A stretch of 64,000 nt of DNA from a virus (Duplodnaviria > Caudoviricetes). The DNA lies in IMG/VR virus record IMGVR_UViG_3300033120_000868, positions 32,001 to 96,000 of that record. One strand, given 5' to 3'. Below are positions 26,874-59,918 of this stretch, piece by piece (positions within the stretch are counted from its first letter, which is position 1; every line of letters begins with the position of its first letter). A model generated the notes under the pieces. That model saw only the letters and a list, made by a program, of their open reading frames with translations. It did no database searches and was not told the DNA's origin. Made by a program: the position numbers and the translations under genes.

Positions 26874-26875
26874 TC

Positions 26876-27222: not shown

Positions 27223-27259
27223 GGAGTGAGGTGGTGTAATAACCACCTTTCTCTTTTTT
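27223..27259 (+). terminator. Intrinsic terminator
   Basis: GAGGTGGT-gtaata-ACCACCTT stem then T-rich tract. Confidence 0.7.
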
Positions 27260-27297
27260 AACTAATTTTGATAAATGAAAAAAATTAACTAATTTTG
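27259..27297 (+). promoter_or_regulatory. TAACTAATTT-class promoter (tail genes)
   Basis: TAACTAATTTTG 27259; TAATTTTG 27290 (second box at 27286). Confidence 0.75.
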
Positions 27298-27314
27298 CAA
27301 CTAAATTAATTACA

Positions 27315-27974: not shown

Positions 27975-28449
27975 AAAAAGATTTAGAAAGCTAAAGAACA
28001 TAGATAAAACCTCCTTGATTGATTTTAAAGCTTATGTTTTTTATAGAGAAAAATCTAAAATAGCCACAAGAGAGACAGTGCAACACTTTGTTGAATATGG
28101 AAAAATAATTTCTGAGTTTTATAAAATAGTTGGAGAGAAGATAGTTGAAGACCCTGATGGAGTTTATATAGACTTTTTAGGATATTTTGGAGTGATGTGT
28201 TATGAAGATAGAAACTTTAGATATGATTTTGCAAAAAAGAAAAAGGTACTTACAGATAAATATGCATTTAAGTTAATGTTTGTCCCAAATAAAAGACACT
28301 TACTTGCATGGGTAGCAGATAATAACTTCTCACTTAAACTAAGACAAAACTTAAAAAACTCTATAAAAACTACAAATAGAGAGTATACCTTTAACTGCGA
28401 GCTTTTCAAAATAAGCCACAACCATAGAAAATATAATAAAAACAAATGA
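27943..28449 (+). CDS. Basic, divergent IHF/HU-like protein
   Basis: YGKIISEFYKIVGEKIV...GVYIDFLGYFGV; sits between ring genes as in crAss-like phages. Confidence 0.5.
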   Translation: MKMPIRKRGIRKRFRKLKNIDKTSLIDFKAYVFYREKSKIATRETVQHFVEYGKIISEFYKIVGEKIVEDPDGVYIDFLGYFGVMCYEDRNFRYDFAKKKKVLTDKYAFKLMFVPNKRHLLAWVADNNFSLKLRQNLKNSIKTTNREYTFNCELFKISHNHRKYNKNK

Positions 28450-35323: not shown

Positions 35324-35359
35324 CTAATTTGTATAAATTAATATTTTTTTGTAATTTTG
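35321..35359 (+). promoter_or_regulatory. TAACTAATTT-class promoter (cargo genes)
   Basis: TAACTAATTTG 35321; TAATTTTG 35352. Confidence 0.75.
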
Positions 35360-35401
35360 CCCCTTAGATTAATACCCTTTGGGGCATTTTTTATTATACA
35401 A

Positions 35402-42408: not shown

Positions 42409-45400
42409 ATGGTAGATATAGAAGATTTCAAAAAACAATTAGATTTAGCTTTCCCAACAAAAACTCCACAACAAGAAAAAGTTTTTGCTGAAATGGATGT
42501 AGAATCTAAAAAACAAGAATATGCTAACAAACTAAAAATACCTTCTGCACCAAGTTCAGGAGGTTTTTTAGATACCACTAAAATTAAATCTGAGCCAGGG
42601 TTAAGATTAGAAACTCCTAATTTTAATGTAGACGAAATATTTAGTAAAACTAACTCAGGAGAGTATATTGCTAAGTTTGATACTTACACACCTGGAATTG
42701 ATAATTATGATAAATTTTCAAGAGAGCAAACTACAGGAGATAAATGGTTGAATGGGGCAACTCAATTCACACAAACGGTTGTAAATTCTATAGCAGGTTT
42801 AGGTAATCTTGTTTATGGTACAGGTGCTATGATTAAAGAAGGGGAATTATCTTCTTTTTATGATAACGACTACATGAATTGGTTGGACGATGTTTCTGAG
42901 AAAAGAAGACTTAACAATCCGATTTACAAAACTTATGAAGAGCAAGAGATGGGCTTTGGAGAAAGCTTAGGTACAGCTTCTTTTTGGGCAGATGACTTTT
43001 TACAAGGAGCTTCTTTTACAGCAGGAATGATTGCTTCTGAGCTTGTTTTAAGAGGATTAACAGGAGGTGTCGTTGGAGGAGTTGGTTTATCAAGAGCAGG
43101 TCTTTCAGCAACTACTCAAGGAGCTTCTAAAATGAACACATTTAAAAATGCAATGGGACTTGCAAGAACCGCAGCGGTAAAACCTATAACAACAGCTATG
43201 TCAAATGTCCTTCCTAAATTAGGAGGAGCTACATTTGGGGCTAACTTAGGTAAAGTAGCTAATATTGTTAGAACAGGAGTTACTTCAGCAGGATATGAAG
43301 CAGGATTTGAAGCTCGTCACTTTATGCGTGAAATGAGAGCAAATTTTGAAGAAGATTTTATTGAAGCTAATGGAGTAGCACCAACAGAAGAAGACAGAGC
43401 AGAGTTTGAATCAGCTTTAAAATCAAAAGCCAATGGTTTGTTTGCTTTCAACGTAGCAGTTGTAGGTGCAAGTAATATAGCACAATTTGGCTCGGCTTTA
43501 GGGTTAAAACTTCCTAAAGTTAAAGGTTTTTCTTCTAATCCTGATAGTTGGATAAATAGAAAAGTATTTGGAGTCGGTGTACAAGACGGAGCTATTGCTA
43601 CAGCAACAATGGGTAACAAATTAGCAAGAGTAGGATACACTTTTGGTAAGAATGCTTTTTTAGAAGGTTTTGTGGAAGAAGGTTTGCAAGGAGTAGGTTC
43701 TAAAACAGCAGAAAAAATGCTGAAAGATTCTTATAGCTTGAATAATGCAAATCAAACTATGGGATATGCTAATGCTTTCTATCAATCTATGTCTGAACAA
43801 TATGGAACAGAAGAGGGGCTAAAAGAAGTTTACTTAGGAATGCTTATTGGAGCTATGACAGGTAGTGCAACTAATTTAGTTACAGCAAGAAGTTTAGCGG
43901 ATGGTAATTTTAAAGTATTAGACCAAAGAGCTAAAGGAATTGAAAAACAACTATTAAAAGGTGGGAGTTATTCTGCGGATAATATGGCTACAAGACTTTT
44001 ATCAGCAAATAGAACAGTAGCGAATAAAAGAGACGAACAAAAAGCTATTCAAGAAGGAGATATTTCAGGAGTACAAACAGCAAGGCATTCTGAAATGTTC
44101 AATCAAACTTTAAGAGGTATTGAATTAAATTATTTAGACCAAATTAAAGAGCAAACTTTACAGCAGTTAGATGTATTATCTGACGCGGAGATTGCAGAAA
44201 TGGCGGGAGTAGAAGTATCAGAAGCTTCAAGAATTAGAGAGGAATTAAAGAACGAATACAAAGCAGAAACAAAAGTAATTGAAGACACTATTAATGCTTC
44301 TAAAGAATTAATAGCAGGCTCACTTAATAAAGGTGAATATAATTTTGCGATTGAGGAGTTTCAAAAAAGAGGGTATAGTAAAGAGATGGCTAATGCTACA
44401 GTGGCTGATATGCTACAGAAATCTTTAGCTTATGAAATGTACATTGGTAAAGTAGCTTATGAACAAGCTGATAATTTCTTAAACACTTTCTTAAACGAGG
44501 TTCAATCTTCAATTGGTTCAACAAGAGTAAAGAAAAGTTTTGGTATCAATGACACTTTAAATCGTTCAGGAAAAGCTGCGAGAAGGAATTTTAATAAAAC
44601 TAAGAAAGAGTTACAACAAACTGTATCTGAATTAGAGCAGTTAGAAAAAGATTATAGAAGAGTTGAAAACATTATTTCTCAAACAACAGCCGAAACAGGT
44701 AATAGACAACAGTTAGTAGGGCAACTAAATGATTTAGTAAATAAAAGAGAAGAGTTAAATAAAAGAAAACAGGAGTTAGAGGCTAATGCAAATGCTTTGC
44801 TATCTTCTGCTAAATTGGAAACCCCTTTTGGAGCTACAGTAGACGCTACAGAGATTACAGCAGATGAAATTTTATCTTTTGAAGAAGATATTACAAAAAC
44901 ACTTGAAGACCTAAGAAAGGTTTCTCCTGAAAAAGCTGAAAGACTTGGGGGTATGTTATATGAATATCAAAAGTCGGTTAATGCCTACAAGACATTAGAC
45001 AAAAGAGTGAAACAATTAACAGACCCTAATGTAGGACTAAGAACTAAAAAAGGATTATTACCTTCTTTGTTTGGAAGAAAAACTCCAAATGAACAGACTG
45101 CCGAAATGATTAGGGGGCTTATAAACACTCACTATCAATTAGACAGAAACACTCAAGAAGGAGTAGAGAAGGCTGTTACCAAAGCAGCGGAAGAGCAATT
45201 AGTTGAGGCAGGAGTGGATAAGAAAGAAATTTTAGACTATTTAAAAGACCAACCTTATTTATTTGAGCAGTATAATGAATCAACAGAGAATATCATACCA
45301 ACTGAAGCTGAGATTGAAGAATACTATGATTTTGCTCAGAGAAATATAGCAGGAGAAGAACCCTTAACAGACGAAGAAAAGGTAAGATTTGAAGAGCTTA

Positions 45401-47796
45401 ATACAAAGTTAGCAAATTGGTATTTAACTGAATCTACACCTTTAGCAGATATCTTAAAACAGCAAGCTTTAAGAGAGACAAAAGTTGAAGAAACAGTAGA
45501 AGATGTTTTAACAGATGAAGATGTTGATGGGATGCTTGAAAAAGATAGAAAAACAAGCAGACCTTTCAATTTTTTACAGACCGTGCAAGATGTTTATTTA
45601 CAGTTTTACAAAGATAGTAATACATACTATTTTTCTCACCTGTCACCAAGAGGATTTTTAAAATTTATTGGGGCGACAACAGATTTAAAAGTACAAAGAA
45701 AAGATAGTAAAAAAGTTGAACCTTTTTCTTTAGACGATGAATTAAAAACAGGGGATAGAGTATTCTTTGGAAACAACATGTCGTTTGCTTTAGAGGACGG
45801 AGCGAGAATAAAAATTGTAACATCAAAAGAGAACTTTAATTCTTTCGGTTTTAAAACAAGAATGACAGCAAGTGGATATAGTGTAGTTTACGATGGAGAT
45901 AAAGTTATGAAATCTGATTATGCAGATATAGACACTTACTCACCTCAAGAAATAATGAGGTTAGCTAATGGAGATGAAATATTTGCTTTTATAGATATGG
46001 AAGATAGTTATAATCAATCTCTAACAGAAGAAGAGTTTGAGCATAATGTTAAAATATCTTTCAGAGACGCTCAAGGTAATAAAATTGCAGATTTAAAAGC
46101 TTTACATTTAGCAGAGGCACAAGATACTTCAGAAATACCTGTTAAGTTTTTAGAAGCTCGTGCAAAAGCAAAAGAATTAGCTTGGGGTAAAACAGGAAGT
46201 ATTGAGTTAGGAAATGTAACAGTTGAAACAGTATTTTTAGGAGCTCCAAACGTAGTTTTAGAAAATGGAGTAGAGAAATGGCAACCTGTTGATGAAAATT
46301 TAATAGAAGACTCAGGAATGTGGAATGGAAGTAAATTAGTAACTAAGAATGGCACAAAAGGGATAAGAACAGATTTACTAAAAGGTATTGATAAGAAAGT
46401 TCCTGTTGTAATTGTAAAAGTTGGAAACACTTTAATTGCATATCCTGTTAGAGGAGGAAAAGTAGCTTCTAATATAGCAGAAACTTTCACTGAAAAAGGA
46501 GCTAAATTAGCATTAAAAATTAATGAAACTCTTATTAAAAATGGTAAAAAACCTGCTCAAATATATTATAATTCAGAGACAGACCAAAACATGTATTCAG
46601 AGGATGGAACGCCAACTCAAGAATTGCAAGATGCTTTAGACAGAGTTAACAGTATAACAACAGAATCAACAAATATAGCAGAAGCTGAAATAAACATTGA
46701 TTTAAATGGTATACCGTTCTTAGCTCCAAAGATGGCAATTAACTTGGACAGTTTCCAAACAGTTAATGTAGCACCTGTAGGGCAGGCAACCTCCCAAAGT
46801 AATATAACTAGTGAAACAAAAGTAGAAGAGGTTTTAACACAGGAGCAAAAGGATAATTTAGAAAAAGCTAAAAAAGGAGAGAAAGCTTCTCCTGCTAAGA
46901 CTATTTTTAATTCTGTACAAGATTTACTGAAACACTCAAAATCACTGTTAGGTAAAACTTTTAACGTAAAAGGATTAAATGTTCAATTCGTTGACTATAA
47001 AGGCGAGGTTTTAACAGGAGCTGGTCAAAGAGTTTTTGTAAAAGTTTTAATAAATGGAGTTCCTGTAACGTTTTATAGTTCGACAGGTTCAGGCAAGAAA
47101 GCTTTACAAGAAGGAGTTTTTTATCCAACATTAGGTATAGAGGCAGACGAGAGATTTAATGGAACTTGGATTAATAAGATAGACGGTGTTGAAATGGCTT
47201 CTTATTATGACTCTGCTTCATTAGCAGCAGTAGGAGCTTTTATAGATTCTCAATTTGGAAACACTAATGGTTTTGCAGGAAGTATAAATCAAAACACAAC
47301 TGACTTACAAAATCCTAACAAAGAAGCCTTAACTAAAGAAAAAGCTTTGGAGATTAGAAGAGAGTATAACAGTGAATATTTAAATAGCGGTAGAGAAACT
47401 TTTTCAAATAATCAAGCTAAAGAAGTTACACAAGCTTTTAAAGATTTAGTTAATGAGATAAGAGGAAAAGTTAATAATACTCAACCTGCTCAAAAACCTA
47501 AAAGCAGATTAGACTTACAAGATGATTATTTTACTTTAGATTTTAAAACGTATGCTTATTTTAGAGATACAAATGGTGATGTTTATACAAAAGAAGTTGG
47601 AGAAATAGCTAGAGCTAAAACAATGTCTAACATGGTAAAAACTCTACCAAAAGCAGAACAAGAAAGAGTAAAACAAGCATGGACAAAGCAACCAGCAGAT
47701 TACTTTGAAAGTGAAAATTTTGAGAAAGTTGTACCAAACGTAGGAACAAGTTCGCGAACAAAACAAGGTAAGAAAAATAAAGATAAAGAGTGTTAA
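42409..47796 (+). CDS. Giant internal virion protein 1
   Basis: 1795 aa; Gly/Ala-rich hydrophobic N-terminal region (EGFVEEGLQ), coiled coils; sole Cys is the last residue. Confidence 0.75.
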   Translation: MVDIEDFKKQLDLAFPTKTPQQEKVFAEMDVESKKQEYANKLKIPSAPSSGGFLDTTKIKSEPGLRLETPNFNVDEIFSKTNSGEYIAKFDTYTPGIDNYDKFSREQTTGDKWLNGATQFTQTVVNSIAGLGNLVYGTGAMIKEGELSSFYDNDYMNWLDDVSEKRRLNNPIYKTYEEQEMGFGESLGTASFWADDFLQGASFTAGMIASELVLRGLTGGVVGGVGLSRAGLSATTQGASKMNTFKNAMGLARTAAVKPITTAMSNVLPKLGGATFGANLGKVANIVRTGVTSAGYEAGFEARHFMREMRANFEEDFIEANGVAPTEEDRAEFESALKSKANGLFAFNVAVVGASNIAQFGSALGLKLPKVKGFSSNPDSWINRKVFGVGVQDGAIATATMGNKLARVGYTFGKNAFLEGFVEEGLQGVGSKTAEKMLKDSYSLNNANQTMGYANAFYQSMSEQYGTEEGLKEVYLGMLIGAMTGSATNLVTARSLADGNFKVLDQRAKGIEKQLLKGGSYSADNMATRLLSANRTVANKRDEQKAIQEGDISGVQTARHSEMFNQTLRGIELNYLDQIKEQTLQQLDVLSDAEIAEMAGVEVSEASRIREELKNEYKAETKVIEDTINASKELIAGSLNKGEYNFAIEEFQKRGYSKEMANATVADMLQKSLAYEMYIGKVAYEQADNFLNTFLNEVQSSIGSTRVKKSFGINDTLNRSGKAARRNFNKTKKELQQTVSELEQLEKDYRRVENIISQTTAETGNRQQLVGQLNDLVNKREELNKRKQELEANANALLSSAKLETPFGATVDATEITADEILSFEEDITKTLEDLRKVSPEKAERLGGMLYEYQKSVNAYKTLDKRVKQLTDPNVGLRTKKGLLPSLFGRKTPNEQTAEMIRGLINTHYQLDRNTQEGVEKAVTKAAEEQLVEAGVDKKEILDYLKDQPYLFEQYNESTENIIPTEAEIEEYYDFAQRNIAGEEPLTDEEKVRFEELNTKLANWYLTESTPLADILKQQALRETKVEETVEDVLTDEDVDGMLEKDRKTSRPFNFLQTVQDVYLQFYKDSNTYYFSHLSPRGFLKFIGATTDLKVQRKDSKKVEPFSLDDELKTGDRVFFGNNMSFALEDGARIKIVTSKENFNSFGFKTRMTASGYSVVYDGDKVMKSDYADIDTYSPQEIMRLANGDEIFAFIDMEDSYNQSLTEEEFEHNVKISFRDAQGNKIADLKALHLAEAQDTSEIPVKFLEARAKAKELAWGKTGSIELGNVTVETVFLGAPNVVLENGVEKWQPVDENLIEDSGMWNGSKLVTKNGTKGIRTDLLKGIDKKVPVVIVKVGNTLIAYPVRGGKVASNIAETFTEKGAKLALKINETLIKNGKKPAQIYYNSETDQNMYSEDGTPTQELQDALDRVNSITTESTNIAEAEINIDLNGIPFLAPKMAINLDSFQTVNVAPVGQATSQSNITSETKVEEVLTQEQKDNLEKAKKGEKASPAKTIFNSVQDLLKHSKSLLGKTFNVKGLNVQFVDYKGEVLTGAGQRVFVKVLINGVPVTFYSSTGSGKKALQEGVFYPTLGIEADERFNGTWINKIDGVEMASYYDSASLAAVGAFIDSQFGNTNGFAGSINQNTTDLQNPNKEALTKEKALEIRREYNSEYLNSGRETFSNNQAKEVTQAFKDLVNEIRGKVNNTQPAQKPKSRLDLQDDYFTLDFKTYAYFRDTNGDVYTKEVGEIARAKTMSNMVKTLPKAEQERVKQAWTKQPADYFESENFEKVVPNVGTSSRTKQGKKNKDKEC

Positions 47797-47802
47797 AGAG
47801 AG

Positions 47803-47828
47803 AGGAGTTCAGAAATGAGCTCCTTTTT
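47803..47828 (+). terminator. Intrinsic terminator
   Basis: AGGAGTTC-agaaat-GAGCTCCT then TTTT. Confidence 0.75.
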
Positions 47829-47894
47829 AACTTATTTTAATATTTAATTTTTTTGTTGTATATTTGCGTATCAAAAAATAAAATTGTATATTTG
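47828..47894 (+). promoter_or_regulatory. TAACTAATTT-class promoter plus a tandem plain promoter
   Basis: TAACTTATTT 47828 with TATATTTG 47859; second TATATTTG at 47887. Confidence 0.7.
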
Positions 47895-47910
47895 CATAAA
47901 ATTAAGATAA

Positions 47911-50900
47911 ATGAACTGTAGAATAATTTACAAAGATAGTAAAATAGACCACGTACAAGCTGAAAATGGAGAAAGAAGTATTCTTTTTGATTCTCTTAAA
48001 GATATTTTTGGCGCGGAAAAAGCTTTAGAATTGTATGCTTTAACTGAAGAAGACGGCTACAAACAAAAAATACAAGAAAAAGTAAGAAGTTTTGTAGGAG
48101 TTACAGAAAAACAAATAGATAAACTATCTGAAGCAATTGATGCACAAGAAACATTAAATAAACTTGTAGAAACAGGTTTAGCTGATAACGTATATCAAAT
48201 GACTTCTGAAGAGATAGAAGCTAAGTTAGTTGAACTTGGAGTGGAAGCTGATGTGGCTAAACAGGTAGCTCAGTCAGGAGGATATTATTCTAACGCTAAT
48301 ACTGCATTTGCAAATTTAAAAGACAAAAATGTTAAAAATGTACAAGGTTGGATGAAAGCCCTAACTGACGTACAAAAAAATGGCGGAATAAAAAATGTAA
48401 ATCAAGAACTTGAATGGATAGGTCTTGAAGATTATTTAAATAACTACGTAAAAGAAAACAACCCAAAAGCAGGTAACATCCCTTCTTCTGTGGTTGAAGA
48501 TTATATTAAGTCAAATCAGATTGAGATTGTTGATGTTACTAAGGGAAACAATATTGTACAACAAGAGATTGAAGATAACAGTAAAAGATTAGATTTCATC
48601 ATTAACGAGTTAGATAATAAATATCTTTTTGATGAAAGCGGTAATAGAGTTCACTATATTAAAGATGAGAATCTACCAAAAGAAGCTGTAGCTTTAATAA
48701 TTGAGAGAGAAGAACTTAAAAAAAGAAACAGAGAACTTTTAAAATTAAATCAGAAAGACACAAAATACTCAGGATACCAACTAAAAGGAGCAGAAAACTA
48801 CAGAGAGGTATTGTTAACAGTTCCAAAAATAGGGCAAGAAAAAAACAGACAAAACCAAATAGATTTTGTAGATTCATTAAAGAAAAAATATAATGTTAAT
48901 ACTGTTATAGATTTAGATAAAGTTGTAAATGATGAGGAAAGAACTAAATGGGAAGAATTAACGACCAAAGCAAATATATCTCCTGAAAAGGATAATAAAT
49001 ATTTTAGTAGTCATTGGGAGGAAGCTAATATTTTAGCTCACGTAAGGTTAAATGAAAAAACTTTACCTGATGGACGTAAAGTGTTGATTGTTAATGAAAT
49101 TCAATCAGATTGGGCACAACAGGGGAGAAAGGAAGGATTTAAAAGAACAAAACAAGCTCAAAATGAACTTATAGCAGAGCATAGAAAAGTATTACAAGAT
49201 TTAGAAGAATTAGACGTACAAATAATCGATGCAGTAGATAATAAAAAACCTAATATTTTAGAACTAGGAGAAAAGAAAGCGGAATTAATTAAAAAATCAG
49301 ATGAATTAAGAAGTGATATTTTTAAACCTCGTGCTCCTCAAATGCCTTATAAAAACACAGACCAATGGACTGGAATTGTTGTAAGAAGAGTGATGCAAAT
49401 GGCTTCACAAGAAGGTTATGATGGAATTGCTTTTGCTACAGGTCAACAGTCTGCTGATATGTATAGTTTATCTAATCAAGTTGAAGTTCTGTATTACAAA
49501 AAGAATGAAGATGGAACTTATGAAGTAGATGCTGATTTAAAAAATGGAGATAATAGAAACATTGGCGAATCTGTAACAGAAGATAAACTTGCAGACTATG
49601 TAGGTAAAGAGGTTGCAAACAAAATTATTGCAGGAGAAGGTACAAACTCCCCATCTCGAATGGATGAAGGTTATAAGTTTTTAAAAGGTTTAGAACTTGA
49701 AGTCGGAGGAGAAGGTATGAAAACTTTCTATGATAAGATTGTACCTAAAGTAGTTCAAAAAGAAGCTCAAAGATTTGATAAAAACGCTAAGTTAGAGACT
49801 GTCGATTTTAGTGATAATTTTACTTTTAGTAAGAAAGAGTTAGATGATTACACGAATTATTTACTAAACAAATATAATTTAGATAAGACAGGGAGGTATA
49901 GAATATTAATAGGGAAAAATGCAACAACAGAAGAAGTAGCTAAATATAAAAACTTATTAGAGAATTTTAGAAAAGATAATGATAGTAAGACATCTCAAGG
50001 TGATAAACTATCTTTAGGAGTACAACCATACTTACCACTAACACAAGCTATAAAAGATTCAGTTAATCAAGGTATACCTCAATTCCAAAAATCAGGAATA
50101 ACTCCAATTACAAACGGGTTTATTTATAAGAATGATGTATATTTAAATAAGAATGCAGATGAATCTACAATGGTACATGAGTTTAACCATTTATACAACA
50201 ATTGGTTAAAACAAAACCGTCCTGAAGTTTATAAGAAAGGTTTAGATTTAATTAAGGAGGAGTTAAAAAAGAAGAACAGTGAAATCCAAGACATAATCAA
50301 TTTTGTAAAAACTAATCAACCAAAATTAGAAGGAGATGCACTTTTAGAAGAGATTATTACCGAAATGGTCGGAAGGAAAGGGCTTGAATTATTAAATGAG
50401 CAAAAAGATAAAGTAAAAAGCTCAGGAATAATTGACTATTTAAAACAAGTTTGGCAAGAAATTAAAAATATGTTAGGATTATCATCTTACACAGATGAAC
50501 AAATCCTAAACATGAATTTACAAGATTTTGCCAACGCTTCTGCTGTAGATTTATTGAGTGGAGAAAACATAGGAAGATTCTCAACAGATAGTAATGACAT
50601 TAGGTTTAGTCAAACTATACCAACATTTAAAGGAAATGCTGATATAGAGAGAATAAAAAAACTTAATAAAAAAGGAAACGAAGATGGAGCAACATTTAAT
50701 TTAGATGGAAGTACTTATGATAAGGGAGGTTTAATTATACCTGTAATTAGTTTAAATACTACTCAAAAGGAGTTATCGAAAGAGCTTATAGAAAAGTTTA
50801 TTCAGGAAAATTCAAGTAAGATTGGAGCTGATAATATTAAAGTAGGTATTTTTAAGTTTGAAGATTCTAATGAAGTATCTATAGATTTAAATGTAGTAGT

Positions 50901-53637
50901 AGATGCTAAGTATAGAGACATAGGTTTAACTTTTGGAAAGTATGCAGGACAAGAATCTTTATTTGATTTAAGTACTTTTTTACCTGCAAAAACAGGTGCA
51001 GATGGTAAGAACCCTAAAAATTTCACAGATGAGGAGTTTAGGGATATTGCTAATAGCTTATCAGAAGGTAAGTTACCTAGCTTTTTAAATTTATCTCCGC
51101 AAACTTCTACAAATTATGCAAATTTAACAGAAGATGGAGAAGGAAACTTTGTATTTTACCATGTAGGAGGTAAAGGATATGATGTAATAAAAAGAGGTAC
51201 AGGACAAAACACAGCAACAAGCAGAGAAGAAGCAACAGCTATAAACAGAGTAGGTGGAGTAGCAATGTATTATCCTGCTGAAAATGTTCAAGAGTCTATG
51301 TTTTCAGGAGAAGCTAAGTATTTAGTAAAAGTTCCTCAAGAGAAAGTTTACGACTTTAATAGAGACACTTTAAATTTATTAGACGAAGCTGAGCAAATGT
51401 TTAGAAAGCAGTTTCCTAATCAAGCTTTTGATAAAAACTCTAAGTTAGCTTTTGTAACTAAAATCGCTAATGAAAAAGGATTTGATGCAGTTGTAGCTAA
51501 TTGGGATAATACAACAAGAGTTCAAACAACTAAAGAGTTGAAACCTTTAGATGAGCAAATTACAGAAGGTAATAAAATTGTTAAAGATTTTTCCGCCGAA
51601 AATAAATTTAAATCAAATAAAGATAAAGGTTGGCAAGTTGTCCCAACAGTTATGCAAAGCAAGCTATTAAAAGACGTATATGATAAAATAGATACTTTAG
51701 TAGGAAACGACTTTTCAAATCCTTTGTATAGAGTTAGAGAAATGGCAGGGTATACTTTTGAAGACAGATTTGCACCATTTAAATCTCAAGATGAGATAAC
51801 GGATGTAGTAGAAAAATCAGACCTTCCTCAAGAAGTGAAAGATGAGTACAATCAAGCAGTTAACTCCAAAGACAAGCTAGGATATTCAAAATTGACTAAA
51901 AAACCTTCTTTAAAGATAGACATAAGAGAAGTTAACGGAAGATTAGTTGTTGAAACTTTAGTAAATGAGACTAAAGCAGGTGCGTTGAGAATGTTGCCTT
52001 ATGAAGATGGTTATAAAGTAGAGTCAGTTATAGTGTACGATAAGTATCAAAATAGACGTTTGGGGACACGATTGTATCAAGAAGCTATAAAGTTTCTATT
52101 GAAGAGTCAAACTCCTTTATACTCTCTTAAAGTACGTAGTGAAAATGCTAAAAAGATTTGGGACAAGTTTGTAGAAATAGGTGTGGCTCAAAAAGTAGGT
52201 GAAGATTATATTGCACCAAATAAAGGAGGATTGGATAAGAACAATGAGGCAAATCCTTCTGATGTAATGCAATATGCAAACACAACAGATGAAAAACTGT
52301 CAAAAGAAGAAACAGCAGAAGCTATCGACTTAACAGTTTCTTTAGGAGTTGAATCAAGCCAAGAAGCTGTAGCTATTTTAAAGGATACGTTCTTAGAAAA
52401 CAACTCTTTTGTGTTTGATAAAAAGAAAATGAAAAAATCAGGGTTTAATGATTATGAAATTACAAAGATATTAGTTGATGTAAATTTACAGAATCAAATT
52501 AAGAACAACTTGGCAAAATTAGAGAACATGGATTTTTCTGTACCTCTAATGGACGTTCAAACAACACCTGAAATTGGAATTTTTGGAAAACAAAAAGTAA
52601 AACCGAAAGTTAAAACTGTAAATGTAAAAACAGTAAACGAACAAGGAGAAGTAATAGATAAAGTTTCAGATACAAAAGAGTTATTAAGAAAAACTTATCC
52701 TGATACTTTACCAACAGAAATTCCACAAATAATAAGTAGTCTTTTAAAAGCTTCTGAAAGTGTAGTTAATAAGTATAATGATTTATTTTATAATACTTTA
52801 GATGATTTAAAAGATGTTGCTTTAGATTTAGGTGTAGATTTAAAAGATATTGAGAATAGAGTGTTTCCTTTAGAAAACTTTAAATCTTTTGTAAACTCTT
52901 TAATGAATTATTATACAAATCCAAGTGATGCTTTTGCTGAAGTTTATGATGAGTTTTTTGAGAATTATGGCGTGGAAAAAGCTACTAAACCAACAATATC
53001 AACTCCATATACAGAATATGAGTTATTTGATAAATTCAATTTAGTAAGAAACGGAGACGAATATGTTAAAGTTGAAGATGTAGAAATCGAACCGTCTGCT
53101 GAAAGACAAGCTAAAATTCCACAATTAGAAGTAGAAGATTTTGCTGTTGATTTTGATAAATTAGAGAAATTAGTTTATCATAAAGAGCAGTTAGGAGTTG
53201 AAATGAAAACTTTACAGAAGCCTTTAGTTGAAGAGATTAATCTTAGAGAAGTTAAGAAAAATCCTTACTTAAAAGCAACTTCTGAAGGTGTAAAATTAGT
53301 AAGCGAAGACCCTCTAACAGCTCAAAAAGCAGAGTTATATGGGTACGAGCCAAAAGTGGCGGAAAAACAACCTAAAAAGATAGAAACAGATTATTCTTTA
53401 ATCCAAGATGTATTAGTAACACAACTAACTTCCGAAAATAAAGTAAGAACACCAAAAGGTAACTTTACTAAATTTATGGACGACAATAATAAATCAGTGT
53501 TTTTATTAGACGGTTCAAAACAAAGTACAGTAGATTTAGAAGGATATTTATCTAAAGCGGACAACACACCAAAAATCGAGGCTAAAAAATTATACTCAAA
53601 AGAAGAATATGAAAATAATTTTGGATGTTTAAATTAA
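47911..53637 (+). CDS. Giant internal virion protein 2, polyvalent (EIQSD module, zincin, SAM-lyase-like, ART-like, GNAT)
   Basis: NEIQSDW, HEFNH, GQESLFDL, VFYH...KGFDAV, KYQNRRLGTRLYQ; no polymerase DFDxD motif. Confidence 0.75.
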   Translation: MNCRIIYKDSKIDHVQAENGERSILFDSLKDIFGAEKALELYALTEEDGYKQKIQEKVRSFVGVTEKQIDKLSEAIDAQETLNKLVETGLADNVYQMTSEEIEAKLVELGVEADVAKQVAQSGGYYSNANTAFANLKDKNVKNVQGWMKALTDVQKNGGIKNVNQELEWIGLEDYLNNYVKENNPKAGNIPSSVVEDYIKSNQIEIVDVTKGNNIVQQEIEDNSKRLDFIINELDNKYLFDESGNRVHYIKDENLPKEAVALIIEREELKKRNRELLKLNQKDTKYSGYQLKGAENYREVLLTVPKIGQEKNRQNQIDFVDSLKKKYNVNTVIDLDKVVNDEERTKWEELTTKANISPEKDNKYFSSHWEEANILAHVRLNEKTLPDGRKVLIVNEIQSDWAQQGRKEGFKRTKQAQNELIAEHRKVLQDLEELDVQIIDAVDNKKPNILELGEKKAELIKKSDELRSDIFKPRAPQMPYKNTDQWTGIVVRRVMQMASQEGYDGIAFATGQQSADMYSLSNQVEVLYYKKNEDGTYEVDADLKNGDNRNIGESVTEDKLADYVGKEVANKIIAGEGTNSPSRMDEGYKFLKGLELEVGGEGMKTFYDKIVPKVVQKEAQRFDKNAKLETVDFSDNFTFSKKELDDYTNYLLNKYNLDKTGRYRILIGKNATTEEVAKYKNLLENFRKDNDSKTSQGDKLSLGVQPYLPLTQAIKDSVNQGIPQFQKSGITPITNGFIYKNDVYLNKNADESTMVHEFNHLYNNWLKQNRPEVYKKGLDLIKEELKKKNSEIQDIINFVKTNQPKLEGDALLEEIITEMVGRKGLELLNEQKDKVKSSGIIDYLKQVWQEIKNMLGLSSYTDEQILNMNLQDFANASAVDLLSGENIGRFSTDSNDIRFSQTIPTFKGNADIERIKKLNKKGNEDGATFNLDGSTYDKGGLIIPVISLNTTQKELSKELIEKFIQENSSKIGADNIKVGIFKFEDSNEVSIDLNVVVDAKYRDIGLTFGKYAGQESLFDLSTFLPAKTGADGKNPKNFTDEEFRDIANSLSEGKLPSFLNLSPQTSTNYANLTEDGEGNFVFYHVGGKGYDVIKRGTGQNTATSREEATAINRVGGVAMYYPAENVQESMFSGEAKYLVKVPQEKVYDFNRDTLNLLDEAEQMFRKQFPNQAFDKNSKLAFVTKIANEKGFDAVVANWDNTTRVQTTKELKPLDEQITEGNKIVKDFSAENKFKSNKDKGWQVVPTVMQSKLLKDVYDKIDTLVGNDFSNPLYRVREMAGYTFEDRFAPFKSQDEITDVVEKSDLPQEVKDEYNQAVNSKDKLGYSKLTKKPSLKIDIREVNGRLVVETLVNETKAGALRMLPYEDGYKVESVIVYDKYQNRRLGTRLYQEAIKFLLKSQTPLYSLKVRSENAKKIWDKFVEIGVAQKVGEDYIAPNKGGLDKNNEANPSDVMQYANTTDEKLSKEETAEAIDLTVSLGVESSQEAVAILKDTFLENNSFVFDKKKMKKSGFNDYEITKILVDVNLQNQIKNNLAKLENMDFSVPLMDVQTTPEIGIFGKQKVKPKVKTVNVKTVNEQGEVIDKVSDTKELLRKTYPDTLPTEIPQIISSLLKASESVVNKYNDLFYNTLDDLKDVALDLGVDLKDIENRVFPLENFKSFVNSLMNYYTNPSDAFAEVYDEFFENYGVEKATKPTISTPYTEYELFDKFNLVRNGDEYVKVEDVEIEPSAERQAKIPQLEVEDFAVDFDKLEKLVYHKEQLGVEMKTLQKPLVEEINLREVKKNPYLKATSEGVKLVSEDPLTAQKAELYGYEPKVAEKQPKKIETDYSLIQDVLVTQLTSENKVRTPKGNFTKFMDDNNKSVFLLDGSKQSTVDLEGYLSKADNTPKIEAKKLYSKEEYENNFGCLN

Positions 53638-53643
53638 TTTTCA

Positions 53644-53651
53644 TATCTTTG
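53644..53651 (+). promoter_or_regulatory. -7 promoter box
   Basis: TATCTTTG ending 28 nt before ATG; TTTG about 24 nt upstream. Confidence 0.55.
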
Positions 53652-53678
53652 CAAAATAAAATAACAAAAATAATATAA

Positions 53679-56600
53679 ATGGCTTGTAAATTAGTATACA
53701 ACAATGAAGGACAATTTGTGAAGGCTCTAACTCCTGATGGGAGAGAGTCTTCCTTATTTAAACAAATTTTAAGTATTCCGCACATTAGAAGTGTAAAGGA
53801 AGCTTCTGAACTATATGCAAATATTTTCTCTAAGAAAATGTATTCTATTATGGGAGAAAAAGGAGCTCAAAACTTAGATAAAGCTCAAGAAGTTACATTC
53901 CGTATGGATAATCTTCGTATTGCTAAAGAAATGGAGAAAGAAAATAAATCTCCAAAAGAAATAAAATTAGCAACGGGGTGGGAAAGAAGTGAAGTAGATA
54001 ATAAATTCAGGTATGAGATTTTAGACGGAAGTTTTTCTAATTTAAATTATGAAAGAAATCAACCTCATGGTACTTTTACAAACGGAGTAGGTGTCTTACC
54101 TTTATCTGAAATATATCAAAATAAGGAACTATTTGACGCTTATCCAAATATAGAAAATAGTTCTGTAGTCATATACTCAACAGATAACCCTGTATTTGAC
54201 CAAGCTACTATGTTTAATTTTCAAAATACTATATTTATAAATGAAAGAAAATCAATTACCACAAATACCGAAGGACTTCATACCCTCACCAACCAGGGGA
54301 GAAGAGTATTATTACACGAATTATCCCACTCTGTTCAAAATATTGAAGGATTTGGAAGAGGAGATAATCCTGCAACAATGGCAACAAGAATTAAAGATGC
54401 CCTTAATGAATTTAAAAGCGAGAATAAGACAGTTGATGAAATAAAGCCAAATACTATTTTAAACACTTTAAAAAATATAGGTGTTGACTTTTCTTTTGGA
54501 TTAGATGATTTTTCTATAGACTATATAGCACAGAATTATTCTGAAGACTTATACGAAAGAGTTTCAGGAGAAGTTGAAGCAAATAACGTATCAAAAAGAT
54601 TTGGAATGAGTTTAGAAGAAAGAAGAAATTCCCTTTTTTCAGAGACACAAGACGTATCTACAGAAGACCAAATATTTTTAGAAAATAATTTAGGAGTGAG
54701 TTCAAAAGTAGAACCACAACTAAACTTCCAATCAGATAAAGGAAATACATTCAAAACTTTCAAAGAAGCTTTAAAAGATTCTACAGGAGGTGATATGAAC
54801 GTGTTATTTGATGACCAAGTAGTTGGAGTAATTAACAGTGAGCAAAATTTAGATACTTTTGGAGGAACAGTAAACCATTTAATTGCAAGTAATATTTTAT
54901 CAGAAAACACTATTGTAGAAAACGGTAAAGTTTATTTAAAAGCAGAAGGTTTTGACCCTCTAAAACAACTTATTAATGAAGACTACTTAAAAGAATATTT
55001 CCCACTATCAAAAATTACAAGAGACGGTAAAGTGGAAGTATTAGAAAGAGTAGAACCTTCTGTTATTAGAGATGTATTTAGGACTTTCTCGCCAAGTGAA
55101 GGACAACTTTCGGAAGAAACATTAAAAGACAGAATGTTAAATTTCTTAAAAGAGGTTGGCATCACTGTAACTTCTATTGATAATTATGTAAAAGCTTATA
55201 AGATTAGAAATGGTGTTGCACCAGGAGCTGAAGCTATTGCAGACTTTGCTAATCAAGTAATTGCGTTTAAAGATGGAGAAATAGAAATTGACAAACTTTC
55301 AGAAGAAACAGCTCACTTTATTATTGAGAATTGGGATGAAGCTGAGATTAGAAATCTTACACGTAATATTCACAAAACTCAAACTTTTGCTGAGTTCTAT
55401 CAACAATATTATGAGATTTATCAAAGAGAGAATCCTGAAATGTCTGCCGAAGAATTAGATTTTTTCACAAGAAAAGAAATTTTAGGAAAAGAGTTAGCAA
55501 AAAGTTTACAAGATAGATTTGATGCTACAAATAAAGAGCCTAACATTCTTAAAAGAATTTATGAACTTTTTGCTAAATTTATCAGTAGTTTAACAACTCA
55601 AGGTAATTATAAAGCTCAGTTAGAAGATTTAACTGAGAAGGTTGATGATTTATTATTAAGAAAAGATGCAGGAGCTGTTTTTCAATTGAAAAATAAAAAG
55701 TTTAGAATGTACTCATTGCCTCAAACTAATGTAGTTAAGGCGGTAGCGGAACAAGAAAAACTTTTAGCAAGAACAGGGCAAGGCTCTAATAAAACAGCAA
55801 AAGAGGTTTTGGATAGCGTTTCAAAAGCCGCGGAAAAAGCTACAACGGATAGTGTAGTTACTTTAGCTAAAAGACAGGTAAAATATGTTAAAGAAGCCGT
55901 AGATGCAGCCGTTAGAAGAGGAAGACCTCTTTCAACAGAAGAGTCATTAGTTTTAAACAACTTAACTCATGCGGTTAGACCTGCTTTAGAAGGATTACAA
56001 GCTTTTATAAAGAATAAGTCGGAATATAAAAAACAAGCAGACGTAGTTGAAAAAACTTTATCTGAGATTTCTATGATTTCAGGCTCTTATAATAACGCGG
56101 AAAACAATTTAGTAGACCAATTATTAGACAGAATTATTGAAAGAAATCCTGGATTAGAAAGTAAAAGAGACCAATTAAAAGCAGAAATAGAAACAGTACA
56201 AAGGGATACTAATTACATGTATTCTTACTTTGGACAGGTTTCTCACGCTTCTGACCCAATTCTACAAATGTTAGCTGTTGTAGGTAGTGATATTTACAAT
56301 GAAGCGAGGATAAACTATAACGAGCGTCAAATGGCGTTTAATAGAAAAATAAAAGAACTAGGATTTGTAGAAAGAGATGTGAACAAGTTAGTTGGCAGTG
56401 ATGGTCATATTATCTCTAAGTGGGATTTTGAAGAATTTGCAGAATTTGAAAGATATGCAAGAGGTAAAGCTTATTTAGATAATGTTGATGCTATTATAGC
56501 AGATTTAGAATCAAGACCTGTAGAAAACCAAGATAATTTAGAAGAGCATAAAGCTTATAAAGCAATGTCTCAAGAAGAGTTTTTAGAAAAATTTGAATAT

Positions 56601-59600
56601 TTCCCTGCAATTACAAATAAAGTTTTGGCAGCAAGAACTTCAGCTCAAGCAACAGAGATTATAAATCAAGGAGAAGAAACTACTTTATCAGACGAAGAAG
56701 TACAAAAGAGAATTACAAACAATGCAAATTTAAGTGATGTAACTAAAGCTACAATAAGAGGCTTTATGGAGACAAGAGCTATGATTCGTAAAAACATGAA
56801 AACTTCTTCTTCAGGCACTAAAATTTATACGTTACAGAACAGACACGATATGGAGTATTTGAATATGGAGCGTAGAAAAGCTATGTCAATTTATAAGACA
56901 GAAAACGCTAAGGAAGTTAAGCAAGGACTATCCACTTCAACTGCCAAAATTGGGCAAGAAAATTTATTTTTAGAAATTGAAAATCAGTATTTAAATTTAG
57001 ATAGAGCTAACGCGTCGGATGAAGCAATTATAGCTTTTGAAATGCTAAGACAGCAGAAAGAGTTCATGTCTAAAAACACTTCAAGACTTTCAGGAGTTAC
57101 AGAAAAATTCATGCAGGATTTAGAAGATATGGAAAAAGACCCTGAAGTGACAAGAGAAGATTTAATAGATTTTATTAAACTTAACACTTCTGTAGGGTTT
57201 TCTGATTCATTTTTTGAAGGGGAATTTACTTCTGTTTTTGATACAATAGAGAATGATGTAAATACACCTGATGAGTTACAAGACACTTTAATTTTATATA
57301 AGGAAGCTTTAAAAGAAAGAAAAGCTATTTTAGCTAGGTATAGAGACCCAAACAATGCAACAAATGTTTTGACCCATAACATGAATGATTTAGATTTGTA
57401 TAACCTTGAACAACTTACAATAGAGTTAGAGGGACAAACTAAAACATTACTGGACTATGCTAAAAAACAAGGATTAACTTCAGAGCAAGCAGAAAAAAGA
57501 ACAGTAAAAGCTCCAAATGAGTCTTATTATGAGGAATTGAAAACTCAAAATTTAGAAGATTTTGAAGATATATACAGTTTTACTATAAAACACATGACTC
57601 CAAAAGCTAAAATGGCTGTAGGGGCGTATAAATTAGCAATTGAATCAGGGAATATTCCTGAAAGAATGGAGTCTTTAGTTGTAGAATATGGGGCTAATGA
57701 AGAAGGTATTTTAAAATATGCTCAATCTAAAATGCTACCATATTACAGTTCAAATTCTCCTATAGGATTAGTAGAGTTTTATGACAATTTAAGAAATTCT
57801 CAAACAGCAGTTTCTGACCTTGTAAAAGGGTTAGATGCAGACCCTGATGTAAGACTTTCAGTTTCTTATGATTATTCTGATAGTACTTCTGATGAAGCTT
57901 TAAATAAATTTAAAGACCCTGATTTTAGAGCCAACACAAGAGAGCCGTCTTTAAGAAAACCTGCTCCTACAGTATTTGGAAAAACATTCGATTTTAATAA
58001 TAAGGAGTATAGTAAATTAACTCCTCAATTATTAGAATTGCAAAAAGCTTACTTAGACTTTCAAGAAGAAAATTTAAAAGGTTATGGTGTAGAAGCAAAT
58101 TATAATATATATAAACTACCTCAAGTAGAAAGAGCAAATTTAGATAAGCTTAAAGGGTTTGGTAAAGACACAAAAGCTACTTTTAAGGAGTATGTGGAAA
58201 GGATAACAACTCATAGAGTAGATGAGCAGGATTTTGGAGCAGATAGAGAAATGTTTAATGCGGGTATAAAAACAATACCTAAAAAATATTTAAGTAAATT
58301 AAACAAAGAAGAAGTATCGACAGATTTATTATATTCTTCAGCTTTACTTGCACAACAAGTAGAATTATATAAAGCAAGAGTTAAATATTTTGGAGAAATT
58401 TCAGCTTTAGAGAAGAAGTTACAGTCAAGACAGTTTATTGGAGGAAAACCTGTACAATCTTCAAATACTTATGCTATGTTTAAGTCGGCTGTAGACAATA
58501 TGATGTTTGGAATACAAGAGACTCAACAGATGAGAGTTAGCGTTCCAATTTTAAATAAGGAGGTAGACTTATCTAAGGTTTTAAGAACCTTGCAAAGATA
58601 CGTATCTAATCTGAGTTTAGCATTTAATCCTATTGTACCAGCAACTTCCATGCTAACAGCTATGTCAGCTTATGTAGCTGAACCATTTATAAAACAGTAT
58701 ATAGACCCTGAAAGTTACAAGAAAGGGTCTATGACAGCTAAAAAATGGATGGGAGCAAGTATGAAGGATACAGGAAGTATTGATGTAAAATCGGATGCTG
58801 TAGCTGTAGGAAATCATTTTGGTATTTTTGATTTAGCTCAAAGGTATAAGAATGCAAATTATGAAAAGTTTGTGAGAACAGCAGTTGGTAACGCTTCTTA
58901 TGGATTACACACAGTAGGTAATTTTATACCGCTAACTCAAGCTGTCGCAGTAACGCTTACAGCGCATAGATTTAGTAATAATAAATTAATTACAAGAAAA
59001 GAGTTTGCAGGAACAGATGTTGAATGGGGCAGATTAAAAAGTGTAGCTGATTACATAGAAAATAGTAATGGGGAGATGACTTACAACTCAGAAATGTTAA
59101 GAGAAAACGGCATAACACCTGAACAGTGGAAAAACATTGAGTTAGGGCTTATGTCAAGAGTTGGTAAGATTGTTGAACGAATTGATGGGCAGATTAAAAC
59201 TCAAGATAGAACAGTAGCGCAAAGAAATTTCTTACTGTCTTGGAGTATGCTTCATAAGGGGTGGTTAGCAATCGGTACAGCTAATGCTTTTAAAGGAAAG
59301 CAGATTAATATGTTAACAGGTCAAGTTGAGCAAGGAAAATATACAGGAGCATTAAGTTGGGCGATGAAATCAGCAGGTCAAAAATTTAATATTAAGAATA
59401 TTAAAGATAAGTACGGAGAAGTAGATGAGGCTGATAAAGTTTCAGCAAGAAGAGTTTTAGTAGAGTCAGGGGTTTTAATGATATTAACTATTTTAGGATT
59501 TTTTATAGCGGCAGGTGCTGACGACGATGAAGAAAGTACAACAAAACAGCTTGCAAATTATTTAGCTTTAAGAACTAAAAATGAAACAATTTCTTCTCAA

Positions 59601-59918
59601 GCAGGTATTATTGGGGAGATATACAAATCTTTAGCATCCCCTTTAGTAGGACTTTCAAGAGTTAAAAATATTGCTACTTTTTGGCACGTATTTGATTCAG
59701 ACGAAGTAAAGACAGGCAGATATGCAGGATTAACAGGTACTGAACAATATATAATTCAAGCTATTCCTGGTTTAAAAGCTGCTTATGATGTAGCTTCACC
59801 TAAGAATATTAAAACACAAGCGAACACTTATGACCATTTTAATAAAGAAAACGAGGTATTTAACATATTCAGTGTTATGTTAAACGAAATTGAAGAAGAA
59901 GACGAGAATGAAGAGTAA
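53679..59918 (+). CDS. Giant internal virion protein 3 (LPD23-like + zincin, degenerate zincin, C-terminal TM)
   Basis: AKEM...IKLATGWE...KFRYEI, LLHELSHSVQNIEGF...GEVEA, EETAH, GVLMILTILGFFIAAG. Confidence 0.75.
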   Translation: MACKLVYNNEGQFVKALTPDGRESSLFKQILSIPHIRSVKEASELYANIFSKKMYSIMGEKGAQNLDKAQEVTFRMDNLRIAKEMEKENKSPKEIKLATGWERSEVDNKFRYEILDGSFSNLNYERNQPHGTFTNGVGVLPLSEIYQNKELFDAYPNIENSSVVIYSTDNPVFDQATMFNFQNTIFINERKSITTNTEGLHTLTNQGRRVLLHELSHSVQNIEGFGRGDNPATMATRIKDALNEFKSENKTVDEIKPNTILNTLKNIGVDFSFGLDDFSIDYIAQNYSEDLYERVSGEVEANNVSKRFGMSLEERRNSLFSETQDVSTEDQIFLENNLGVSSKVEPQLNFQSDKGNTFKTFKEALKDSTGGDMNVLFDDQVVGVINSEQNLDTFGGTVNHLIASNILSENTIVENGKVYLKAEGFDPLKQLINEDYLKEYFPLSKITRDGKVEVLERVEPSVIRDVFRTFSPSEGQLSEETLKDRMLNFLKEVGITVTSIDNYVKAYKIRNGVAPGAEAIADFANQVIAFKDGEIEIDKLSEETAHFIIENWDEAEIRNLTRNIHKTQTFAEFYQQYYEIYQRENPEMSAEELDFFTRKEILGKELAKSLQDRFDATNKEPNILKRIYELFAKFISSLTTQGNYKAQLEDLTEKVDDLLLRKDAGAVFQLKNKKFRMYSLPQTNVVKAVAEQEKLLARTGQGSNKTAKEVLDSVSKAAEKATTDSVVTLAKRQVKYVKEAVDAAVRRGRPLSTEESLVLNNLTHAVRPALEGLQAFIKNKSEYKKQADVVEKTLSEISMISGSYNNAENNLVDQLLDRIIERNPGLESKRDQLKAEIETVQRDTNYMYSYFGQVSHASDPILQMLAVVGSDIYNEARINYNERQMAFNRKIKELGFVERDVNKLVGSDGHIISKWDFEEFAEFERYARGKAYLDNVDAIIADLESRPVENQDNLEEHKAYKAMSQEEFLEKFEYFPAITNKVLAARTSAQATEIINQGEETTLSDEEVQKRITNNANLSDVTKATIRGFMETRAMIRKNMKTSSSGTKIYTLQNRHDMEYLNMERRKAMSIYKTENAKEVKQGLSTSTAKIGQENLFLEIENQYLNLDRANASDEAIIAFEMLRQQKEFMSKNTSRLSGVTEKFMQDLEDMEKDPEVTREDLIDFIKLNTSVGFSDSFFEGEFTSVFDTIENDVNTPDELQDTLILYKEALKERKAILARYRDPNNATNVLTHNMNDLDLYNLEQLTIELEGQTKTLLDYAKKQGLTSEQAEKRTVKAPNESYYEELKTQNLEDFEDIYSFTIKHMTPKAKMAVGAYKLAIESGNIPERMESLVVEYGANEEGILKYAQSKMLPYYSSNSPIGLVEFYDNLRNSQTAVSDLVKGLDADPDVRLSVSYDYSDSTSDEALNKFKDPDFRANTREPSLRKPAPTVFGKTFDFNNKEYSKLTPQLLELQKAYLDFQEENLKGYGVEANYNIYKLPQVERANLDKLKGFGKDTKATFKEYVERITTHRVDEQDFGADREMFNAGIKTIPKKYLSKLNKEEVSTDLLYSSALLAQQVELYKARVKYFGEISALEKKLQSRQFIGGKPVQSSNTYAMFKSAVDNMMFGIQETQQMRVSVPILNKEVDLSKVLRTLQRYVSNLSLAFNPIVPATSMLTAMSAYVAEPFIKQYIDPESYKKGSMTAKKWMGASMKDTGSIDVKSDAVAVGNHFGIFDLAQRYKNANYEKFVRTAVGNASYGLHTVGNFIPLTQAVAVTLTAHRFSNNKLITRKEFAGTDVEWGRLKSVADYIENSNGEMTYNSEMLRENGITPEQWKNIELGLMSRVGKIVERIDGQIKTQDRTVAQRNFLLSWSMLHKGWLAIGTANAFKGKQINMLTGQVEQGKYTGALSWAMKSAGQKFNIKNIKDKYGEVDEADKVSARRVLVESGVLMILTILGFFIAAGADDDEESTTKQLANYLALRTKNETISSQAGIIGEIYKSLASPLVGLSRVKNIATFWHVFDSDEVKTGRYAGLTGTEQYIIQAIPGLKAAYDVASPKNIKTQANTYDHFNKENEVFNIFSVMLNEIEEEDENEE

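Follow-up and report, generated by a model that had tools for sequence, protein, structure and literature searches.

The closest described counterparts of the locus analysed here are the RNA-polymerase blocks of crAss-like phages, in which three consecutive giant genes lie 3' of smaller cargo genes whose products are free of cysteine (Cys). These are gp67-gp66-gp65 of phage phi14:2 (Drobysheva et al., preprint 10.1101/2020.03.07.982082) and gp47-gp50-gp49 of crAss001, for which ejection of partly unfolded cargo has been proposed (Bayfield et al. 2023, PMC10172136); neither report mentions the cysteines. A further giant, the virion RNA polymerase (vRNAP) gp50 of phage N4, is ejected through a narrow tail and is thought to unfold (PMC13434306), and its domains follow the order injection, polymerase and encapsidation, the last with a zincin domain (PMC5512222). 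In addition, polyvalent proteins have been defined as giants that unite several effector and LPD domains in one chain, again with no mention of cysteine or disulfide (Iyer, Burroughs, Anand, de Souza, Aravind 2017, PMC5512222). Here, we describe three giant genes, P1, P2 and P3, at positions 42409-59918 of a 64,000-nucleotide stretch of phage DNA, whose products have the same cysteine pattern as the crAss-like blocks: their only four Cys are located at the protein ends that face each other.

The whole stretch, referred to as the window, comprises bases 32001-96000 of the 143,493-bp virus record IMGVR_UViG_3300033120_000868, which is rated complete by CheckV; the G+C content of the window is 30%. 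The source is a crAss-like marine phage of ~143 kb, whose host probably belongs to the Flavobacteriia. The gene order proceeds from terminase and portal via structural genes and a 2005-amino-acid (aa) virion protein to three Cys-free cargo open reading frames (ORFs) and P1-P3. As in the blocks of the gp67-gp66-gp65 type, the three adjoining giant genes follow the tail genes and the smaller cargo genes, and the region 35357-59918 probably encodes a packaged and ejected cargo block.

Terminal cysteines in a cysteine-depleted cargo block

Cysteine positions were read from a six-frame ORF listing, supplemented by a residue count. A preliminary description of this DNA had assigned a single Cys to the very end of P1, Cys3 and Cys1906 to P2 and Cys3 alone to P3. 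This was reproduced exactly by the ORF listing, and the residue count confirmed that the two outer ends of the triplet carry no Cys. The features concerned are the following:

42409..47796, plus strand: P1, 1795 aa; its sole Cys is the last residue; counterpart of phi14:2 gp67
47791..47793, plus strand: Cys1795 codon of P1 (TGT); the end reads GAG TGT TAA
47911..53637, plus strand: P2, 1908 aa; its sole Cys are Cys3 and Cys1906 (third from the end)
47917..47919, plus strand: Cys3 codon of P2
53626..53628, plus strand: Cys1906 codon of P2
53679..59918, plus strand: P3, 2079 aa; its sole Cys is Cys3; C-end acidic; probable counterpart of phi14:2 gp65
53685..53687, plus strand: Cys3 codon of P3, directly before the first beta-strand

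At the background rate of the window, the chance of zero internal Cys in 5778 residues is ~3e-27, which excludes a chance origin of the pattern. Within the complete cargo block (35357-59918) Cys is 17-fold depleted, occurring at 0.06x the rate of the window's other proteins, in which Cys accounts for 0.86-1.05% of the residues. His (0.43x) and Trp (0.51x) are depleted about 2-fold, and all remaining residues range from 0.7x to 1.4x. The three cargo proteins encoded upstream of P1 had also been described as lacking Cys, and all of them do:

35357..36355, plus strand: cargo ORF, 332 aa, 0 Cys, with an N-terminal transglycosylase-like domain
36342..39632, plus strand: cargo ORF, 1096 aa, 0 Cys; phrog_36695, virion structural protein
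39669..42407, plus strand: cargo ORF, 912 aa, 0 Cys; phrog_32131, virion structural protein

The 332-aa protein matched PF06737 with 25.6 bits, which is under the 27-bit cut-off, and the transglycosylase family phrog_4067 at 1.7e-16. Equivalents of the 912-aa protein are Cys-free in all related loci. The outer virion proteins had, in turn, been portrayed as Cys-rich, and several of them are, with up to 7.3% Cys (7.3% for 23899-24354, 3.7% for 25905-26873 and 24 Cys for 29306-35323). A run of small Cys-rich ORFs (23899-29318; examples are 151 aa with 11 Cys, 322 aa with 12 Cys and 162 aa with 8 Cys) is located just 5' of the 2005-aa virion protein, in sharp contrast to the Cys-free cargo block.

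The spacers of the triplet contain the following hairpin and three short promoter-like motifs.

47799..47828, plus strand: terminator-like hairpin between P1 and P2, 3' of P1

The sequence TAnnTTTG, which we take to be the Bacteroidota -7 promoter type, occurs at 47861-47898 (two motifs, 5' of P2) and at 53644-53652 (5' of P3), suggesting separate transcription of the three genes. A window-wide search for the TAnnTTTG-to-ATG pattern did not exceed chance and missed the sites 5' of P2 and P3, and a sigma-70 promoter scan was not above chance either.

Conservation of the terminal cysteines and their dependence on gene partition

The same arrangement occurs in cultured phages. In phi14:2, Cys is found only at the last residue of gp67 (1797 aa), at positions 3 and 2179 of the RNA polymerase gp66 (2180 aa) and at position 3 of gp65 (1421 aa). 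The crAss001 protein gp47 has one Cys, third from the end, gp50 has Cys5, one internal Cys and a Cys ninth from the end, and gp49 has Cys5 only, so that the terminal-Cys pattern of both phages is identical to that of the window. The triplet pattern is also present in cr128_1, IAS virus, DAC15 and cr106_1. In crAss001, DAC15 and cr106_1, the first gene of the triplet lies on the strand opposite to the other two.

To cover the protein families more widely, P1, P2 and P3 were searched against 5.8 billion proteins. About 50 mosaic relatives of P2 have exactly two Cys, one at positions 3-5 and one in the last 4 residues. In the P1 family, a Cys is located among the last 8 residues in 36/37 members and an N-terminal Cys in 0/37. 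The P3 family shows the reverse, with a Cys at positions 2-6 in 49 of 52 members and a C-terminal Cys in 0/52; the starts of the three exceptions differ and are probably truncated. Distant polyvalent proteins sharing only LPD23 (P0210-P0229), which served as a control, lack the terminal-Cys pattern, unlike P2 and P3.

P2 and P3 start with homologous cap domains (N-caps):

47911..48075, plus strand: N-cap domain of P2, ~55 aa
53679..53843, plus strand: N-cap domain of P3, homologous to the P2 N-cap

A 55-residue profile of this domain, searched against 1.84 billion cluster representatives, identified 814 clusters at E <= 1e-3. Among the best 150 of these 814, Cys occurs at positions 2-6 in 147; two of the three exceptions are mis-called upstream starts and one is unrelated. 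The domain begins at residue 1 in ~146 of the best 150 clusters, and the frequency of internal Cys in long N-cap matches is 0.028%. P2 and P3 both begin with ATG-x-TGT, and their start codons are plausible, as starts of the form M-x(1-4)-C recur in 147/150 of the best N-cap cluster representatives. One protein, P0298, has a second, internal N-cap copy, which is devoid of Cys.

Genomic context was available for 13 metagenomic loci (L001-L013), all of which show Cys at the C-end of P1, both ends of P2 and the N-end of P3. The identity of these triplets is 20-60%, and their P2 lengths range from 560 to 3312 aa. At some loci, ORFs are inserted between the giants (L001:15212-15403, 63 aa; L002:16525-16917, 130 aa; L004:9369-9998, 209 aa; L013:19929-20696, 255 aa with 11 Cys). 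The terminal-Cys pattern is undisturbed by these insertions of 63-255 aa, for which no accepted Pfam family was found, a single weak Spo0M match falling below the cut-off.

The pattern was then assessed in ~30 lineages, comprising the 13 metagenomic triplets, phi14:2, crAss001, DAC15, the p-crAss-like phage LMMB, crAss002, four Suoliviridae and Fpv1. Every end that faces the next giant has a Cys <=9 residues from the terminus (~90/90), and no outer end does (0/54); the nominal Fisher p of 6e-41 overstates the significance, since the lineages are related. The Cys is spaced 0-8 residues from the C-end or 1-5 residues from the N-end.

The occurrence of these Cys depends on how the block is partitioned into genes. 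Where P1 and P2 are fused and followed by P3 (Fpv1, 4401 aa; cr4_1, 4491 aa; cr1_1, 4551 aa; cr50_1, 4774 aa; ProJPt-Bp1, 3481 aa), only the joint towards P3 is kept; in all of these giants the RNA polymerase lies in the second half, judging by where the polymerase match falls. Where P1 is followed by a fusion of P2 and P3 (LMMB, 4070 aa; crAss002, 4245 aa), the joint facing P1 is kept, the true start of the crAss002 fusion likely being the internal Met33, which reads M-S-C. The metagenomic doublet loci L014 and L016 have one joint each, and the singletons, L015 (2928 aa) and the N4 vRNAP (3500 aa), have 0 Cys. With each fusion, precisely the pair of Cys bordering the fused joint is lost, while the remaining joint is retained. 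For this reason pairing between neighbouring ends agrees with the data, and P1-P3 pairing combined with a cyclised P2 is ruled out.

Pairing of the C-end of P1 with the N-end of P2, and of the C-end of P2 with the N-end of P3, had been proposed from the window alone. It is now strongly supported by comparative genomics, as the rule is found in every lineage covered and is lost only at fused joints and in singletons. Counting of Cys positions across triplets of Crassvirales and related phages, which the preliminary description had recommended, revealed that the terminal Cys are conserved and co-occur in ~30 lineages.

The polymerase/subunit fusion of LMMB (4070 aa; L021:11694-23906) has a Cys at residue 2220, within SFNC-PSYTF, at the probable joint. 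It is similar to the F-x-C tail with which unfused middle proteins end, and could be a remnant of that joint.

The cargo block and its middle protein

P1 gave two collinear BLASTP matches to phi14:2 gp67 (E 1e-9 and 3e-4), and the C-terminal half of P3 gave a weak collinear match to gp65 (E 0.003). P3 also has LPD23 at residues 73-117 (30.3 bits at a 27-bit cut-off) and an HELSH motif at residue 213. A hydrophobic, membrane-span-like segment at residues ~1925-1943 of P3 (59451-59510) is the sole strong one among the six cargo proteins and was aligned with a similar segment of gp65. The cargo proteins are probably virion components, with indirect support from PHROG families annotated as virion structural and from proteomics notes in the phi14:2 record.

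The middle protein differs from its counterparts. In phi14:2 and crAss001 it is an RNA polymerase, whereas P2 shows neither the DFDxD motif nor similarity to gp66: no D[FY]DxD motif is present in P1-P3, and no similarity of P2 to the gp66 RNA polymerase was detectable. Elsewhere in the 143,493-bp genome no gp66-like gene was found, in a search that had no positive control. No solved structure was matched by the sequences of P1, P2 or P3, and a DNA search of 42409-59918 gave no match in a phage collection from which close records may be absent. P2 contains an HEFNH zincin motif at residue 756 and a GNAT domain at residues 1341-1414 (21.3 bits at a cut-off of 20.7). More generally, the modules LPD23, ART-PolyVal (PF18760), zincin and GNAT recur in varying order among P2, P3 and their relatives, and PF18838 also occurs in the relatives. 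Because P2 combines the zincin motif with GNAT and has relatives with ART-PolyVal and LPD23, it fits the definition of polyvalent proteins given by Iyer et al. (2017). As judged from its domains, P2 is thus a polyvalent effector protein of mosaic structure, which occupies the place taken by the RNA polymerase in phi14:2 and crAss001. By position, by the homology of P1 and by the weaker similarity of P3, the block is classed as a crAss-like cargo block whose middle member lacks the sequence marks of the polymerase.

BLASTP comparison of P2 with 13 relatives revealed a constant N-cap (~90 aa) and a constant C-terminal module (~460 aa), between which the modules are shuffled.

52228..53634, plus strand: C-terminal module of P2, residues ~1440-1908, ending in an F-x-C-x tail

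This module always aligned to the C-end of the relatives, and the Cys is the sole invariant column in the alignment of the C-tails. The shortest middle protein (L005:9989-11671, 560 aa) consists of N-cap and C-terminal module only and retains both Cys, an "empty wagon" which indicates that the variable effector part is dispensable.

A candidate head-to-tail tether and competing explanations

A Cys at the C-end of one protein together with a Cys at the N-end of the next would provide for a specific link, and from the comparison of sequences we consider a specific link of some chemistry between adjacent ends likely. That it takes the form of a reducible disulfide, so that a split polyprotein would act as one thread, is the view towards which we lean slightly. 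Such a disulfide would arise after packing or after particle release and would be reduced in the host cytoplasm. By this means, separately translated proteins would become one linear polyprotein of ~5800 residues in the order P1-P2-P3. As the Cys are so near the ends, the branch stubs would be only 0-8 residues long and the joint would be nearly linear, which would suit an unfolded chain on its way out via portal and tail. With no other Cys left, wrong cross-links would be avoided, a sensible arrangement should the packed proteins meet oxidising conditions. In crAss001, DAC15 and cr106_1 the P1 gene is on the opposite strand, so that the link has to arise after translation. The linear order of the chain is functional. 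Among the conceivable link chemistries a disulfide fits best, given one Cys per end and no invariant metal-binding residue nearby. Overall, our confidence in the pairing is strong, that in disulfide chemistry moderate, and that in co-packaging, ordered ejection and reductive release weak. The preliminary description had gone as far as a chain, linked by disulfide or metal bridge, that could have a 1:1:1 stoichiometry, enter the tail as a single strand and be freed by reduction.

As a tentative extension, which we regard as possible but somewhat doubtful in its entirety, the block may constitute a covalent, reducible "train" of a leader, swappable cargo wagons and an end protein, coupled by single terminal disulfides. 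One or more wagons could be carried, either RNA polymerase or, as in this window, a polyvalent effector cassette. Packaging would occur at a fixed ratio, the train would be drawn through the tail as a single thread of set order, and uncoupling would take place in the reducing cytoplasm of the host, with the conserved N-cap and C-tail acting as a portable coupling signal for any cargo.

In AlphaFold2 models, Cys3 is positioned just before beta-strand 1 of the small cap domain, and the C-terminal Cys lies in a low-confidence tail, the last 4 residues of P2 having a pLDDT below 50. A complex prediction for the last 120 aa of P2 and the first 120 aa of P3 scored 0.02, which is neither support nor contrary evidence.

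The domain order of N4 gp50 parallels P1, P2 and P3 of the window. Its 3500 residues include 0 Cys; gp50 is a single chain with no joints, hence without terminal Cys, whereas the window encodes three chains. In function, the nearest analogies might be found in AB toxins and in von Willebrand factor with its end-linked multimers. In AB toxins such as diphtheria and botulinum toxin, a reducible interchain disulfide keeps the cargo chain attached to its partner while a narrow channel is traversed, and reduction follows in the cytosol. The likeness is restricted to the mechanism, as the toxin chains derive from a nicked precursor, their Cys are not terminal and there is no homology. Von Willebrand factor and the gel-forming mucins are linearly concatenated by disulfides via terminal domains. 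These links are homotypic, head-to-head and tail-to-tail, and are made between Cys-rich domains in the secretory pathway, whereas the links proposed here would be heterotypic, head-to-tail and formed by single Cys of otherwise Cys-free proteins.

Some virion data bear on the nature of the link; the published gels are all reducing ones. Reducing SDS-PAGE of crAss001 virions yielded bands at ~150 and ~270 kDa (PMC6235969), and the monomer masses of the three giants are 154.5, 262.5 and 276.9 kDa (PMC10172136). The bands are therefore close to monomers of gp49 (~150) and gp47/gp50 (~270); the available text of PMC6235969 names no proteins for them. To this extent, the gel pattern is more in keeping with a link that can be reduced than with a peptide bond, and complete peptide ligation appears unlikely. 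The same reducing gel showed a further band above 300 kDa, bigger than any single listed cargo product (PMC6235969). Intermolecular disulfides are present in crAss001 virions between the tail hub and ring proteins (PMC10172136).

Several points weigh against the disulfide tether. Direct evidence for a bond, of whatever chemistry, is lacking. The rule is kept by gut crassviruses in an anoxic, reducing habitat, though spontaneous disulfides are not expected there. No thioredoxin or ferritin gene was found in the phage's own genome, and a search of this genome for an Erv1-type oxidase returned nothing, which is uninformative because its control was also blank. The C-terminal tails show little conservation beyond the Cys, so that no docking surface to bring the ends together was identified. 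The P1 relative P0124, the single exception of 37, has Tyr in place of Cys at its end. Depletion of Cys is incomplete in places, with 9 Cys in the P2 of L008 and 7-10 in the proteins of IAS virus. Finally, LMMB encodes an 861-aa upstream cargo protein (L021:539-3124) with a lone Cys second from its C-end that has no evident partner. In the gut crassvirus cr128_1, a gene annotated as thioredoxin-like thiol-disulfide isomerase (L018:36375-36620) is located a few kb from the cargo block.

That orphan Cys of LMMB, together with the lack of a demonstrated bond, would be accommodated if the terminal Cys did not bond with each other but served as tethers to portal, capsid or DNA or as packaging or processing signals, any association between the giants being non-covalent. 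We regard this as unlikely, since separate roles leave unexplained why the outer ends and the singletons are Cys-free, why C-end and N-end Cys occur in equal counts and why the flanking Cys are lost in pairs on fusion. Adjacent ends might, alternatively, be joined through a metal ion or cluster held by thiolates, which would function in anoxic habitats such as the gut, and the four Cys of a triplet could even form one tetrahedral site. The joints are, however, lost independently upon fusion, which speaks against such a common site, and a separate metal bridge would have just two Cys per joint, with no invariant His, Asp or Glu in cap or tail and with His depleted ~2-fold across the cargo block. 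In two doublet loci a ferritin/rubrerythrin-like gene of 163 aa lies exactly between the partner genes, of which one ends and the other starts with Cys (L014:17396-17887, L016:15741-16232). This arrangement would favour a metal bridge and may point to a link to redox or iron; the window's genome was found to have no ferritin gene, and a metal bridge is in our view quite improbable.

The Cys could also act as nucleophiles in an intein-like or native-chemical-ligation-like reaction leading to a thioester or peptide bond. Both ends do carry Cys, the N-C found at some N-ends recalls an intein/extein border, and the LMMB fusion has one Cys at its probable joint. No intein blocks were found, though, the N-terminal Cys is preceded by a leader of just 1-4 residues that varies between proteins (Asn, Asp, Gln, Lys, Thr, Ser or Ala), and the crAss001 bands in the reducing gel run near monomer sizes, so that ligation is very improbable. 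A split intein in particular would place an IntN of ~100 aa, with Cys as its first residue, at the end of one protein, and an IntC with a final His-Asn ahead of the Cys of the next; here the Cys lie 0-8 and 1-5 residues from the ends, and the preceding residue is variable. An origin of the pattern at the nucleotide or translation level, by ribosomal bypass between Cys codons or as an ORF-calling artefact or chance, is hardly credible. The Cys codon directly before the P1 stop and the one two codons past the next ATG would lend themselves to bypass. Against it, the P1 gene is on the opposite strand in crAss001, DAC15 and cr106_1, whole ORFs of 63-255 aa separate partner genes in relatives, the Cys codons differ (TGC vs TGT) at 7 junctions, and a terminator-like hairpin lies 3' of P1. 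Bypass of the T4 gene 60 type is ruled out by the opposite strands, the intervening ORFs and the unmatched codons at these 7 junctions.

The protein families concerned are known, as are reducible interchain disulfides in toxins and other virions; for the junction rule, the literature searched contained no description. This literature, on crass cargo, polyvalent proteins, gp66 and N4 and including a 2026 N4 paper, makes no mention of cysteine or disulfide in these proteins or of a junction rule, in agreement with the preliminary description, which knew of no precedent. The window adds that the rule is independent of the RNA polymerase, as it holds with an effector cassette in the middle slot, and it contributes the minimal cap-plus-tail wagon, the N-cap census and the fusion argument for adjacent-end pairing. 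As the effector cassette swaps freely between a conserved N-cap and C-terminal module, and a 560-aa relative consists of cap and module only, the arrangement may represent a coupling device of general use for injected cargo.

For podophages of the N4-like and crAss-like kinds it is an open question how megadaltons of protein pass a channel of a few nm in set order and ratio (PMC10172136, PMC13434306). The exact pattern is present in two cultured systems, phi14:2 (gp67/66/65) and crAss001 (gp47/50/49). If true, a conserved end-to-end tether would be a concrete physical answer to ordered protein ejection, and it would explain why the number of genes in the block can vary, from one to two, three or more, with its function kept.

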